Source: Candidatus Heimdallarchaeota archaeon (GTDB lineage Archaea; Asgardarchaeota; Heimdallarchaeia; Heimdallarchaeales; Kariarchaeaceae). Taken from it: a stretch of DNA of 32,000 bases. The notes under the pieces were generated by a model, which ran no database searches, was not told where the DNA came from, and saw nothing but the letters and a program-made list of their open reading frames with translations. Location of the stretch: assembly GCA_030149205.1 (NCBI GenBank), contig JASBSB010000001.1, positions 270,001 to 302,000 of the forward strand. The letters are read 5' to 3'. Of the stretch, positions 13,927 to 25,022 are shown piece by piece. Position 1 is the first letter of the stretch. Each line of letters opens with the position of its first letter. A program made the translations under genes and the position numbers.

Positions 13927-13988
13927 TCTCTTCTGCTACAAAATAACTAGGCTTATATTCAATAATACTAATATTATAATTAGAAACA

Positions 13989-14672
13989 ATGGTTAAAGGT
14001 TCTAGTGTTGACAAGAATGAGGGTAAATCTGACCTCATCCCAGAGAAAAAATCTGTTGCCTTCATACATATCAGGGTTGACCCTGAATTCAAAAGAGACC
14101 TCCTTGAAAAGGTTGAGGAAGAAGATACAAATCTTACGGCTTATGTGGTAAACACTCTTTCTGCTGACATTTATAAAAAGGAGATAGAAGAAGAGGATGA
14201 GGAGGATCTATTGAGAGAAGATATACTTGGAGCACTGGAGAACCTAGAAAGAAGAGTAGAAATTCGACTTTCCACACTTCAAGATACTTTTAATTCATTG
14301 ATAGGTAAATTAATTGCACTTGACACCAGAAAATCTTCCACTAGAAGAGGAAAAAGTAGAAAACAACAGGCATTTGTTGAGGAAGACGATGAACTCTCAG
14401 ATGTATTGGATAAGGATGAGGTCCTCAAGATAAGACCAGAAGAGATGGTTTACTCAAGGGTAAAACGTTTTGTAGAAACTAAGGGTGTGGCTGAGGTTCC
14501 TGATTTTCAAGAAATTATTTTGCACTTAGAAACAGATGCACAGATAAAGGAGTTTTTCCAACGACAAGAAGAGACTTTCCCCGGTTGGAAAGAGTCAATG
14601 GTTACAGATGCAATTGAAGAGGCTATTGAAGAACTGGGTATTTCTCTTAAAGGAAGAGGTGGTGGAGCATAG
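13989..14672 (+). CDS. Ribbon-helix-helix domain protein with acidic stretch, coiled coil and C-terminal helical domain
   Basis: AFIHIRVDPEFKRDLLEKVEEEDTNLTAYVVNTL matches the RHH strand-helix-helix pattern; ILGALENLERRVEIRLSTLQDTFNSLIGKL is a coiled coil. Confidence 0.75.
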   Translation: MVKGSSVDKNEGKSDLIPEKKSVAFIHIRVDPEFKRDLLEKVEEEDTNLTAYVVNTLSADIYKKEIEEEDEEDLLREDILGALENLERRVEIRLSTLQDTFNSLIGKLIALDTRKSSTRRGKSRKQQAFVEEDDELSDVLDKDEVLKIRPEEMVYSRVKRFVETKGVAEVPDFQEIILHLETDAQIKEFFQRQEETFPGWKESMVTDAIEEAIEELGISLKGRGGGA

Positions 14673-14686
14673 CTAGACGACCATTT

Positions 14687-16243
14687 GTGAGGCGAAAATC
14701 TAATGAAAAGCGAAATCAAGAGGCAATAGACCTTTTTAATCTGTTCAATCGGCTTCAACCAGTTACCAGGAACAAGTATTTAACTGTGATTCATTCTTTT
14801 GGAGAGTTTTTAATGGTTCATAAAAAATCATTTTGGGATGTTGCTCCATTAGACGTAAAAAAGTTCTTATTGGAAGGAGGTACACCACAATCTAAAAGCA
14901 TCCTAAAAACCTTCTATAGAGTGCTCATAGACACAGGAGAATTTCAGGGTGATAACCCTATAACTCTTCTAAATGAGATCGAAGAACAGGAGAAGGAGGC
15001 GGGAATTGAGATTGAAGCTCCAAAAACATCGGCAGAAACTGTTTTGGAAACATTAAGAGATGAGAATCTAAGTTTTAGTGAAGAGTTTGTCCCTGCAGAA
15101 AACCGGGTGGTGGAAAAGAAAAAGCCCCCAAAACCAATTATGACACTTACTGACCTAGAACATTTACTTAAAAGAACTCATCATATAAGGGAAAGAGCAA
15201 TTCTAGAAATTTTATTTGCCACAGGTGCAAAACTCAAAGAGATAATAGAGTTAAACGTCTCAGATATTGATTTGGAGGGTAAAAAAATAATGTTTTTTGA
15301 AACTGATACTCAGATCTCAAGAGTTATTGCGATGCCAAAACGAGCTTTACCATTCTTAAGACTATACGAACGATGGCGCTTAAGGCAACTTTCACCATCA
15401 AACGCTTATTTTATTACCAAAAAGACAAAGGAGAGAATGAGACCCACAACAGTTTCCTCATGGCTAGCTAGACTTCAACGAGATAAAGAACCTGGTCAGA
15501 GATGGACGATTGGGGATTTTCGAAAACGGGCAATTCTTCAACATTATTGGTTGACAAAGGATTTAGCTGCAGTCAGTAGATTTGCAGGATATAAAAGACC
15601 GGAGGCAGGGTTACGCGTTGTTAATCAAATTCTTGAAGATAGAGGTATAGAAAATCTAAAAGATTTGACTGAACTACCAGAATTTGATGAACTTCAACGA
15701 GACAAGAAAAAATTGACACCAAGACTCAATGATCAATCAACTACAATCACCATAAGTTTAGATCCTGATGAGCTGGAAATGATTCGAAAATCTGGTTTAA
15801 CACCAACTCAAGCAGTTAAAACTGTCTTTTCACTTAAAGACCTATACTCTTCAGTTGCTCCTGCTGCCGCAGCAGCTCCGGTAGCAAGCTCACCTCTTGC
15901 CAAGGCCATGTCCGTAAGTGCTGCACCTCCACCATCCAGACCCAGTGGGGGAAGTTCTGGCCCTAGATCAGAAGGGAAGTCAACGTTTGTTCCTGGGCCT
16001 GTTGGCGGTGGACCACCTTCGGGACCATCTTCAGGAGGCGGAGGTGGTTTAGGATTCTTAAGTGAGCTCAAATCTAAACTGCAGGAAAGAAATAAAGCAA
16101 AGCAAGAAGGAAAAATACCCTCTGAAATAACAATTGGACCTCAAGATCACTTTGCCAATGTTCAGATTTTAGACTCAAAATCGAAGGATGATTCCGATTC
16201 TAAATCTGAAGAAGAAGATGAGAAAGAACAAAAGGAAGACTAA
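14687..16243 (+). CDS. Catalytically inactive XerC/D-like tyrosine recombinase fused to an RHH-like segment, a Pro/Gly-rich region and an acidic tail
   Basis: SAM-like core-binding domain (TRNKY...F..FL...NPI); catalytic-domain framework ERAILEILFATGAKLKEI...DID, GDFRKRAI...DLAAVSRFAGY; catalytic residues replaced (see findings). GTG start 14 bp after the upstream stop. Confidence 0.85.
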   Translation: MRRKSNEKRNQEAIDLFNLFNRLQPVTRNKYLTVIHSFGEFLMVHKKSFWDVAPLDVKKFLLEGGTPQSKSILKTFYRVLIDTGEFQGDNPITLLNEIEEQEKEAGIEIEAPKTSAETVLETLRDENLSFSEEFVPAENRVVEKKKPPKPIMTLTDLEHLLKRTHHIRERAILEILFATGAKLKEIIELNVSDIDLEGKKIMFFETDTQISRVIAMPKRALPFLRLYERWRLRQLSPSNAYFITKKTKERMRPTTVSSWLARLQRDKEPGQRWTIGDFRKRAILQHYWLTKDLAAVSRFAGYKRPEAGLRVVNQILEDRGIENLKDLTELPEFDELQRDKKKLTPRLNDQSTTITISLDPDELEMIRKSGLTPTQAVKTVFSLKDLYSSVAPAAAAAPVASSPLAKAMSVSAAPPPSRPSGGSSGPRSEGKSTFVPGPVGGGPPSGPSSGGGGGLGFLSELKSKLQERNKAKQEGKIPSEITIGPQDHFANVQILDSKSKDDSDSKSEEEDEKEQKED

Positions 16244-16394: not shown

Positions 16395-17510
16395 ATGCAA
16401 ATGTACGAAGATTGGAATAAAAATGATGATCGAGGAAATGTACTGAGCCAGAATGAAGCCAGAGTTCTGCATTCATTAATTAAGTGGCCAGACTTAACAG
16501 ATCAAGCAGTTCATTCCCAAATAGGAATGAAAAAATCAACTTTCTCCTCAATTAAAACACGACTAAAAGAGAATGGGTTCTACAAGCGATATTATGTCCC
16601 TAATTTTCCTAAAATTGGTCTTGAGCTATTGGTATCAATGCATGGAAACCTTAACAGGTTTACAACACTAGAGGAGAGAATGAGAGTTGCAAAAGACCTT
16701 TTGGAAAGTTTCGTTGAGGATTTTCACATCGCGTCGGAATCAAATAAAGCTTTTAATCTGTCTGCAAGTCAAAATCTGACAGAATATTCAAAAAACCAAG
16801 AAAAATTCATTCAGTTATACTCAGACAATAAATTTCTAGATAAAAATGGAATGAAAGTTGTCTATTTCCCCTTTGAAATAAGCAGAATTAGAGCATTTAT
16901 GGATTATGAGAGTTTGGTTGCGAAAACCTTTGGATTTGCCTCTGATCCATATGACAAAAGAAAGACAATCCCCTCAGGAAAAGTCAAGCCAACTAAATTA
17001 ACTAAGGCGGAAAAGAAAGTACTTGCTGGATTAGTACAGTTTCCAGAAGAATCTGACACTTTAATTGCTGAGCAAGTTGGTGTTTCAAGAAATACAGTTG
17101 CTAATGCAAAAAGAAAATTTTTAAATCAGAATATTTGTTTTCCTAGGGCTGTTCCAGACCTACAGAAGCTTGGTATGAAGATATTAGTTTTCTCTTACAG
17201 AAAATTTAACCCACGAACTACAATGAAACAAAGAGAAGAGGCTGCAGAGATGGTAAGAAACCTTTTATCTCCATTTTTCTATGTATCCAAAAACTTGGAT
17301 GGATTCTTAATTTCCGCACATAGATCATTTGAGGAGTACAACACTGCGCATGATGAAATTATGAGATATTATCTTAAACATGATTACATTATCGATGAGC
17401 CAGTTTCATACACAATGACCATAAACAACATTCACTTCATTAAGGAATATGAATTTTTACCTTTAACCTTGAAAACGCTTGGATTTACAAAAGCACTCAA
17501 TCAAAGTTAA
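16395..17510 (+). CDS. Tandem-duplicated Lrp/AsnC-like transcriptional regulator
   Basis: Two similar halves: LSQNEARVLHSLIKWPDLTDQAVHSQIGMKKSTFSSIKTRL...VPNFPKIGLELL and LTKAEKKVLAGLVQFPEESDTLIAEQVGVSRNTVANAKRKF...VPDLQKLGMKIL; HTH followed by the Lrp-type linker. Confidence 0.8.
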   Translation: MQMYEDWNKNDDRGNVLSQNEARVLHSLIKWPDLTDQAVHSQIGMKKSTFSSIKTRLKENGFYKRYYVPNFPKIGLELLVSMHGNLNRFTTLEERMRVAKDLLESFVEDFHIASESNKAFNLSASQNLTEYSKNQEKFIQLYSDNKFLDKNGMKVVYFPFEISRIRAFMDYESLVAKTFGFASDPYDKRKTIPSGKVKPTKLTKAEKKVLAGLVQFPEESDTLIAEQVGVSRNTVANAKRKFLNQNICFPRAVPDLQKLGMKILVFSYRKFNPRTTMKQREEAAEMVRNLLSPFFYVSKNLDGFLISAHRSFEEYNTAHDEIMRYYLKHDYIIDEPVSYTMTINNIHFIKEYEFLPLTLKTLGFTKALNQS

Positions 17511-23654: not shown

Positions 23655-25022
23655 ATTAGTAATGCTAGCATTCTAAAGGAAATTATTGACGATAATGAAA
23701 CTAAAATATTTACACTCTTTGATGTAGAGAAAGGAAGACTTTCAATTGAGGAAAGACAGGGTGATAGGAGTGTATTTTTAGAAGTTAAAGTATTTACAGC
23801 TGATGCGAGACTCAAGGGTATTCTTTGGTTTTTTGGAGATAATAGAGCTTATATTGAAGACATTAGAAACCTAAAGGCTAGAAAAGAGAGTCAGAAAGTA
23901 GATATGATTCTGATAGCTAAGGGAGGAACTACGGCAGCTGGGAGTAAAATTCTAAAAGCTTCGAAGGTTAAGTTAATCAAAGACCTAGACACTGTCAAAA
24001 AGAAGAGTTCGAAAAAATCAAAAACCAGCAAGAAAAAATCAGGAGAAAAAAGTAACCTCCAAGTTGAAGAAGATTTTCTCGATGAGATTCCCAAATCAGA
24101 TTTAATTGAAAAGGGAATGAACCTTGTCAAAACTAGAGAACCTGAAAGCATTAAAGTGACAAAAGTTAAGGATTATGAAGAAGCGTTTGATGTTAAGGGA
24201 TTTTCTTCAACAGCTGATTTATTAATTGTATACAGGACCATCGAAAAAAACCCAGTAGGAGTAAAGGAAATTAGAAAATTCCAATCGTATCTTGAGGAGC
24301 ACGAAAATGTAGCTGCCGGGATCATTGTACCAGACAAATTTACAACTGCAGCTAAAAGAGATGGACAAAAAGCAAAGATTACCCTGATCTCTTTAAAAGA
24401 GGAGAAAGAAACAGCAATTTCTCCAGAAATTGAGTACTTGACAGAACGGTTGATTAGAGGAGCAATTGAAATTCTAAAGTACCGAGGATACAAAATTTTA
24501 CCTGAAAAAAATAAGGCATATGACCCATTAAGAGCAGGAAGCGAAAAACTGGGTAAATACATTATCGCTGAGGAAAGTTCAGAAAAAACATTAGTGCTAG
24601 TACCCCAAGATGAAGTTGTTAGAGTTGCTACGGTCCGAACCATGAAGGAACAGATGGATCACCTAGGTATCTCTTCTGGTATACTCATCCCCATCAAAAG
24701 ATTCACGTATACTGCAGATAGAGAATGTCAACTCTCTGGAATCGTCCCCTTACGTAAAAATCACCCAGTATTTAACATCTTCAACAATGGCCTCGTTCCA
24801 GAACATGTAATTCTTGATAAAAAAGCAACAAGAGAGGTTTTAAAGAAGTTCCATAGTAAAATTCACCAAATCCCAAAAATATTTGATCGAGATCCAGCTG
24901 TATCCATGTTGGGTGCAAAAGAAGGTGACTTGTTAGAAATTAGGAGAGGGATAGATTCAAAATCCTATCGTATAGTTATTCCAACACCAGGTGTTGATAG
25001 AGTAGAGACGGACGAAGATTAA
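23655..25022 (+). CDS. rpo5: RNA polymerase subunit Rpo5/Rpb5-like protein with an Rpb5 jaw domain and two extra restriction-endonuclease-fold domains
   Basis: C-terminal assembly domain (GLVPEHVIL...IPKIFDRDPAVSMLGAKEGDLLEIRR..SYRIV); Rpb5-N signature RLIRGAIEILKYRGY. Frame is open from 23655 (previous in-frame TAG 23652-23654); ORF track start ATG 23904 cuts the first domain. Confidence 0.75.
   Translation: MSNASILKEIIDDNETKIFTLFDVEKGRLSIEERQGDRSVFLEVKVFTADARLKGILWFFGDNRAYIEDIRNLKARKESQKVDMILIAKGGTTAAGSKILKASKVKLIKDLDTVKKKSSKKSKTSKKKSGEKSNLQVEEDFLDEIPKSDLIEKGMNLVKTREPESIKVTKVKDYEEAFDVKGFSSTADLLIVYRTIEKNPVGVKEIRKFQSYLEEHENVAAGIIVPDKFTTAAKRDGQKAKITLISLKEEKETAISPEIEYLTERLIRGAIEILKYRGYKILPEKNKAYDPLRAGSEKLGKYIIAEESSEKTLVLVPQDEVVRVATVRTMKEQMDHLGISSGILIPIKRFTYTADRECQLSGIVPLRKNHPVFNIFNNGLVPEHVILDKKATREVLKKFHSKIHQIPKIFDRDPAVSMLGAKEGDLLEIRRGIDSKSYRIVIPTPGVDRVETDED

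Follow-up and report, generated by a model that had tools for sequence, protein, structure and literature searches.

A published counterpart of the architecture described here is ParR, a ribbon-helix-helix (RHH) adaptor whose C-terminal tail docks in a hydrophobic pocket of ParM, a mode of binding that actin modulators also use on actin (PMC5016525). A second point of reference is Ndc10 of the budding-yeast CBF3 kinetochore, where a non-catalytic tyrosine-recombinase fold serves as a DNA-binding platform (Perriches & Singleton 2012, as cited in PMC5771398). The gene considered here lies in a 32,000-nucleotide stretch of a Candidatus Heimdallarchaeota genome (contig JASBSB010000001.1, positions 270,001 to 302,000; hereafter the window, to which coordinates refer unless another contig or locus is named), where an open reading frame (ORF) on the forward strand with a GTG start at 14687 (14687..16243) encodes a 518-amino-acid (aa) protein that combines a non-catalytic tyrosine-recombinase fold with a long C-terminal tail. 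Crypton-derived genes are reportedly domesticated tyrosine recombinases as well, and by analogy with these and with Ndc10 the 518-aa protein would have kept the recombinase fold as a non-catalytic DNA-binding platform. It differs from them in being archaeal, in having no detectable sequence relationship to them, and in carrying an RHH-like block and tail motifs that are specific to its own family. We think it rather probable that the protein is a DNA-bound adaptor, not an enzyme, with a docking helix tethered in its tail.

The recombinase fold is evident from both sequence and structure comparisons. Residues 1-124 (14687..15058) form an N-terminal helical domain equivalent to the core-binding domain of Xer and Cre, modelled by AlphaFold2 with a predicted local distance difference test score (pLDDT) of ~85-94, and residues 150-341 (15134..15709) have the fold of the catalytic domain. 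In Foldseek searches with the AlphaFold2 model, built from 20 family sequences, the top matches are XerA (5hxy, E 1.7e-7), Cre, XerD and IntI, and the alignments to XerA and Cre cover both domains. The Pfam family Phage_integrase (PF00589) matches residues 156-303 (E 3e-11), the match running to profile position 157 of 172 and so stopping short of the tyrosine. Pfam and Foldseek together place both halves of the two-domain tyrosine recombinase fold, core-binding and catalytic, in this protein, and a search of PDB sequences with the family profile returned recombinases only, none of them covering the RHH-like block that follows.

The catalytic residues, on the other hand, are gone. An alignment of the 20 family members with the canonical Xer of the host lacks the R-K-H-x-x-R-H/W-Y set with its nucleophilic tyrosine: the Arg I position is K, Q or R, the lysine of the beta-hairpin has been lost, the histidine of HxxR is replaced by an invariant aspartate (Asp277), and the nucleophile position is occupied by Leu327 (or by Val in an alternative register), with a tyrosine in 0/20 members. 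The canonical Xer is encoded separately (C1:193166-194158; 117 bits, profile positions 2-169, tyrosine region included). A canonical Xer function for the 518-aa protein was rejected on both grounds, the dead active site and the presence of a canonical Xer elsewhere in the genome. Archaeal XerA and bacterial XerC/D are its best sequence and structure matches and share its two-domain architecture, but the 518-aa protein differs from them in lacking the catalytic residues, tyrosine included, and in having ~180 residues added at the C-terminus. It is a Xer-fold paralogue without catalytic residues.

The added region begins with the most conserved part of the protein, a block at residues 351-388 (15737..15850) that starts STTITISLDPDELEMIRKSGLTPTQAVKTVF. 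Among the orthologues (19 full-length sequences, 40-66% identical overall) this block is gapless, with a mean pairwise identity of 0.73. AlphaFold2 models two helices only, at 360-369 and 373-387, and they come after a strand-like, alternating-hydrophobic TITISL, a pattern that suggests an RHH fold. Next comes a linker (residues 389-449, 15851..16033) predicted to be disordered (pLDDT <50). It is 77% P/G/S/A, includes AAPPPSRP and GGGPPSGP, is 61 to 145 residues long depending on the orthologue and has 46% gaps in its alignment columns. The earlier note, written from the sequence of the window before any search, had described a Pro/Gly linker; the P/G/S/A-rich tract and both of these segments are as it said, but 'Pro-rich' overstates the case, and because no orthologue has more than three consecutive prolines (PPP) there is no polyproline of the profilin-binding type. 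In many orthologues a short repeat, G-P-(S/N)-(L/M)-(G/K/S), occurs 3-10 times in the linker (for example GGPNLK six times), whereas the 518-aa protein has none; in one relative (L051) such repeats stand in for the acidic tail after the helix. They might serve as another type of binding motif.

Behind the linker, a glycine run leads into a conserved helix (residues 450-475, 16034..16111; GGGGGLGFLSELKSKLQERNKAKQEG), located by the earlier note with exact coordinates and sequence. AlphaFold2 predicts a lone helix at 455-473 (pLDDT of the block ~85) between disordered stretches at 385-454 and 477-518 (pLDDT <50). Conservation of this helix among orthologues had been proposed as a check, and it is gapless in 19/19, with E460, L461, L465 and R468 invariant; the family consensus of glycine run and helix reads GGGGG-P-x-x-Q-(L/M)-x-E-L-K-A-(I/L)-L-A-A-R-R-x-K. 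A more distant family (f4, three genomes) has a tail that cannot otherwise be aligned, yet retains a Gly-rich run, AAYISELKEILKKRRQ and TGKIVV. Judged from sequence, the helix is a short linear motif under purifying selection, because f4 tails keep it though they are otherwise unrelated. Its first half is hydrophobic (phi-x-E-L-x-x-phi-L), its second half basic (x-x-R-R-x-K), and its net charge is +3. The description of this helix as amphipathic did not hold in the classical sense: the helical hydrophobic moment (0.65) is at the level of shuffled sequences, 50% of which equal or exceed it, and the two kinds of residue are segregated along the helix.

A second conserved motif (residues 484-496, 16136..16174; GPQDHFANVQILD) follows 10-20 residues after the helix. 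It reads P(T/S)LGGKI(V/I)D in most orthologues and TGKIVV in f4, and is gapless, with a mean identity of 0.39, between flanks that cannot be aligned. The protein closes with a disordered, D/E/K/S-rich end (residues 497-518 plus the stop codon, 16175..16243; pLDDT <50), in agreement with the D/E-rich tail reported before. After the helix the 518-aa protein has 15 D+E against 6 K+R, and most orthologues have 16-27 acidic residues there. The acidic end is lineage-specific, f4 proteins ending KKDGPNAPKL. In most orthologues outside the host's genus the acidic tract is followed by a conserved tip, (D/E)(D/E)I-x-D-x-P-x-F-(D/E/N/S)-(F/L/I), which the 518-aa protein and its genus lack. This tip resembles two partner-binding C-termini, that of SSB in bacteria (DDDIPF) and the C-terminal peptide of FtsZ.

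Gene linkage is informative as well. A gene for a 227-aa protein (13989..14672, forward strand) ends 14 bp before the 518-aa ORF. At its N-terminus the product carries an RHH-like block (FIHIRVD...); an invariant helix (NLERR.EIRL.TLQDTFNSLIG.L), a charged linker and a C-terminal domain follow, and no Pfam family matches it. A partner gene of ~220-240 aa stands directly upstream of every orthologue examined, in the other genomes overlapping it or <=83 bp away. Profile searches of 31 related genomes found the partner and the recombinase-like gene in exactly the same 13, adjacent in 13/13, and the other neighbours of the pair vary between genomes. The arrangement looks like a two-gene operon. 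An AT-rich palindrome, TAATACTAATATTATAATTA, lies at 13963-13982, 7 bp 5' of the partner's ATG; possible roles are that of a promoter element and that of an operator bound by the RHH-like proteins.

If the 518-aa protein is such an adaptor, its folded domains would sit together with the partner protein on chromosomal DNA. The tethered helix, behind a glycine hinge, would be a docking peptide that becomes folded when it meets another protein, and once docked it would recruit or cluster that protein at the DNA-bound complex. A docking role is suggested by analogy with ParR, since in both, DNA binding of the RHH type would be joined to a flexible tail that ends the protein and bears a short conserved docking peptide, the partner in ParR being an actin-fold filament. 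The differences are nevertheless substantial. No sequence relationship to ParR was detected, and the 518-aa protein has an extra module, the dead recombinase; compared with the ParMRC operon, the locus is chromosomal and lineage-wide and has no adjacent parM-like NTPase gene, and no upstream iterons were found. As to what the helix would bind, the co-encoded protein, or the 518-aa protein itself through self-association, is a possible but tentative candidate; actin, for which the case is one of sequence likeness, is doubtful, and some other protein is equally so. That the helix is no docking peptide at all, and instead contacts DNA under regulation by the acidic tail or binds membrane, is about as possible as the first of these.

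Several observations weigh against an adaptor of this kind. No gene for an NTPase or a filament protein occurs in the operon or elsewhere at the locus; the neighbours of the gene pair are an RHH/coiled-coil protein and a TrmB-like winged helix-turn-helix protein, with no actin-fold NTPase. Around the operon, a search for iterons or centromere-like repeats gave only short two-copy matches and the palindrome at 13963-13982. DNA binding by the folded domains is suggested by their fold, and for the RHH-like block even the fold is a prediction: Pfam RHH models match the isolated segment of neither the 518-aa nor the 227-aa protein, and the PDB sequence search with the family profile gave nothing for the block. 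The position and the sequence of the segment that had been called RHH-like from residue 351 stood, and AlphaFold2 shows its two helices, but we treat the RHH fold as a call from pattern because a Pfam RHH match is lacking. The helix, finally, is short, and a composition so rich in K/R/E/A/L is frequent in many unrelated helices; those tail-profile matches that are not orthologues are proteins of low complexity or with repeats, among them eukaryote-like ones that have three to five copies of ELQAKLARRRAASE.

The distribution of the motif itself was established by an exhaustive hmmsearch of 1.84 billion representative proteins with the tail profile, which gave 20 matches at E<=1e-3. All matches that cover the profile at full length in a single stretch are orthologues or fragments of orthologues, and the motif is thus family-specific, not a shuffled module. 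A regular expression for the motif, run on the six-frame ORFs of the host, found this gene only, and a protein-atlas search with the tail gave no usable match. Against Pfam (E<=10), the 18 orthologue tails gave stray sub-threshold matches and no WH2; against PDB sequences, the tail profile gave one chance-level match, to a Sec61-beta homologue (E 0.94). The best non-orthologous matches, the proteins with ELQAKLARRRAASE (P0027, P0032, P0034, P0035 and P0037), are 366-505 aa long and come from short contigs. The eukaryote-like proteins carry 3-5 repeats of ELQ(A/S)(K/R)LARRR(A/V)ASE with disordered spacers, some of them ending CCC-x-x-x, and P0037 has a weak match to Pfam CSLinker (E 0.008, below cut-off). 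An ESCRT motif of the MIM1 type was considered for the helix and dropped, the spacing being L-x-x-x-L-x-x-R against a consensus of L-x-x-R-L-x-x-L.

The most specific of the rival explanations is the one put forward in the earlier note, that the glycine run and helix are a WH2-related peptide like the F-actin-binding (FAB) segment of Ena/VASP and that specific DNA is thereby tethered to actin filaments, for which ParR and ParM offer a precedent. We find this doubtful, but the resemblance is not imaginary. Human VASP FAB comprises residues 259-278 (PMC10340426), and the sequence that the earlier note gave for it proved correct over these 20 residues. A profile of 18 archaeal tails, compared by hhalign with VASP FAB (a pairwise comparison only), aligns in the proposed register over 15 columns (P 9.8e-6, probability 82%), with every hydrophobic position and the RR.K cluster matched. 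In both, a glycine run directly precedes a short helix with phi-x-E-phi-x-x-phi-L-x-x-R-R-x-K spacing, the surroundings are disordered and a Gly/Pro-rich stretch lies ahead, and most orthologues carry GGGGG before the helix. Identities to VASP FAB in the best ungapped register range from 5 to 9 of 20; an orthologue with ...QMGELKALLARRRKMA reaches 9/20, above the 518-aa protein, whose own helix, a point against the idea, has only 8/20. At database scale, however, the similarity is not significant. The exhaustive tail-profile search contained no Ena/VASP protein at E<=1e-3, and the core pattern common to the family and FAB turns up five times in the six-frame ORFs of the host (1.49 million residues), in line with the 3.3 per million expected from composition, so that a likeness to one known motif or another is no surprise. 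Pfam WH2, WH1 (EVH1) and VASP_tetra match neither the 518-aa protein nor the 18 orthologue tails, and the tail has no KLRK/LKKT element. Unlike Ena/VASP, the 518-aa protein lacks EVH1, polyproline profilin sites, GAB/WH2 (KLRK) and the tetramerisation coiled coil, the region after its helix is predicted to be disordered, and the motif sits on a pseudo-recombinase of DNA-binding fold. The comparison with WASP-family tails, likewise proposed on the order Pro-rich, helix, acidic, is weaker still. The VCA region and the archaeal tail share a rough order of Gly/Pro-rich region, helix and acidic stretch, but the archaeal tail has short proline runs, no WH2 LKKV/T element and no tryptophan, and its acidic stretch is not kept in f4. 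On sequence comparison, then, the resemblance to VASP FAB is real in form but not long enough to count statistically, and the remaining Ena/VASP and WASP architecture is absent.

Genomic context cuts both ways for an actin tether. Presence of actin in the genome had been named as a further check, and the host does encode one actin (378-392 aa, 445 bits to PF00022) as well as gelsolin-domain proteins; actin was found in every f1 and f4 genome where the assembly allowed. Yet actin is encoded at an unlinked site, on contig C2, and actin is present in 27/31 related genomes, including 15/15 of the sister family f2, all of which lack the gene pair. The recombinase-like gene occurs in 9/11 f1 genomes plus the host and in 3/3 of f4, but in 0/15 of f2, 0/1 of f3 and none of the rest of the 151 sampled genomes of the phylum. 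By this distribution the 518-aa protein is not a general actin accessory, because the gene is limited to f1 and f4 while f2 has actin throughout; a lineage-specific actin adaptor is possible. The regulators of Asgard actin in published surveys are profilins and gelsolins only (PMC13716822), which also argues against the tether, as does the acidic tail, which would oppose contact with acidic F-actin. The same tail suggests another explanation, an electrostatic module in which the helix, through its basic half, would touch DNA without specificity, and the acidic end would bend back onto the basic helix or the DNA-binding domains and tune affinity. Auto-inhibition by an acidic tail is familiar from other DNA-binding proteins, the helix charge of +3 and the excess of acidic residues behind it are as expected, and the rest of the protein consists of DNA-binding folds. 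But the invariant residues are E460, L461, L465 and R468, a hydrophobic face would be unexpected in a simple DNA contact, f4 keeps the helix without the acidic tail, and the positions of the basic residues vary; we regard this module as unlikely. Far less probable is an amphipathic helix of the membrane-targeting kind, by which the DNA-bound complex would be fixed at the cell membrane. In favour of such an anchor, the helix is isolated, flexibly tethered and equipped with Leu/Phe and Lys/Arg, but the hydrophobic and basic residues are not arranged around the helix, which is internal and has the acidic tail after it. We dropped this candidate on the hydrophobic moment, which is no higher than that of shuffles.

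The gene pair is found in a genome of 3.3 Mb (12 contigs, 93.5% complete), and the named homologues of the 518-aa protein come from Heimdallarchaeota metagenome bins. The genes around it encode housekeeping proteins - MutS, MutL, isocitrate dehydrogenase (IDH), GGT, iPGM, LonB and malate dehydrogenase - and the locus is chromosomal DNA and not a mobile element. The database record of the 518-aa protein is 476 aa long and begins at Met43. The 42 residues between the GTG at 14687 and that point (14687-14812) align with conserved orthologue N-termini (M.RRPF.R.KKNE.KNQEAID.F..FNRL.P.TR.KY), and the start called in the database is probably too far downstream.

Downstream, at 16395-17510 (forward strand), lies a gene for a 371-aa protein with two winged-helix regions (TrmB, MarR and HTH_23 matches); a TrmB-like gene and mutL are also found 3' of the orthologue in relative L003 and not in L002 or L004. 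On the reverse strand of this archaeal genome, 17540-22070 encodes MutL and MutS of bacterial type, both full-length and the latter with its five domains all present, in the same orientation as a DUF2797 gene and a small HEAT-repeat gene. At 23904-25022 (forward strand) the C-terminal assembly domain of Rpb5/RpoH is fused to N-terminal Mrr-type restriction-endonuclease-like domains (Pfam Mrr_cat and NA-iREase1), and comparable fusions occur near orthologues in two more genomes (L002 9583-11199; L039 3199-4212).

We found no publication that describes this module; the kinds of element that it combines, a domesticated tyrosine recombinase and a tethered short linear motif, are known. In its strongest form the actin hypothesis would have the helix bind Asgard actin filaments and the dead recombinase and its partner act as a chromosomal, centromere-like DNA-actin adaptor, analogous to ParMRC or to a kinetochore, and this we hold to be a shade more doubtful than actin binding as such. 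If true, the helix would be the first actin-binding peptide of the FAB/WH2 type outside eukaryotes besides gelsolin linkers, and DNA would be linked to actin in the archaeal lineage closest to eukaryotes. If the helix does not bind actin, the gene pair would still be a strictly linked domesticated-recombinase module, whose tethered motifs mark a chromosomal interaction hub.

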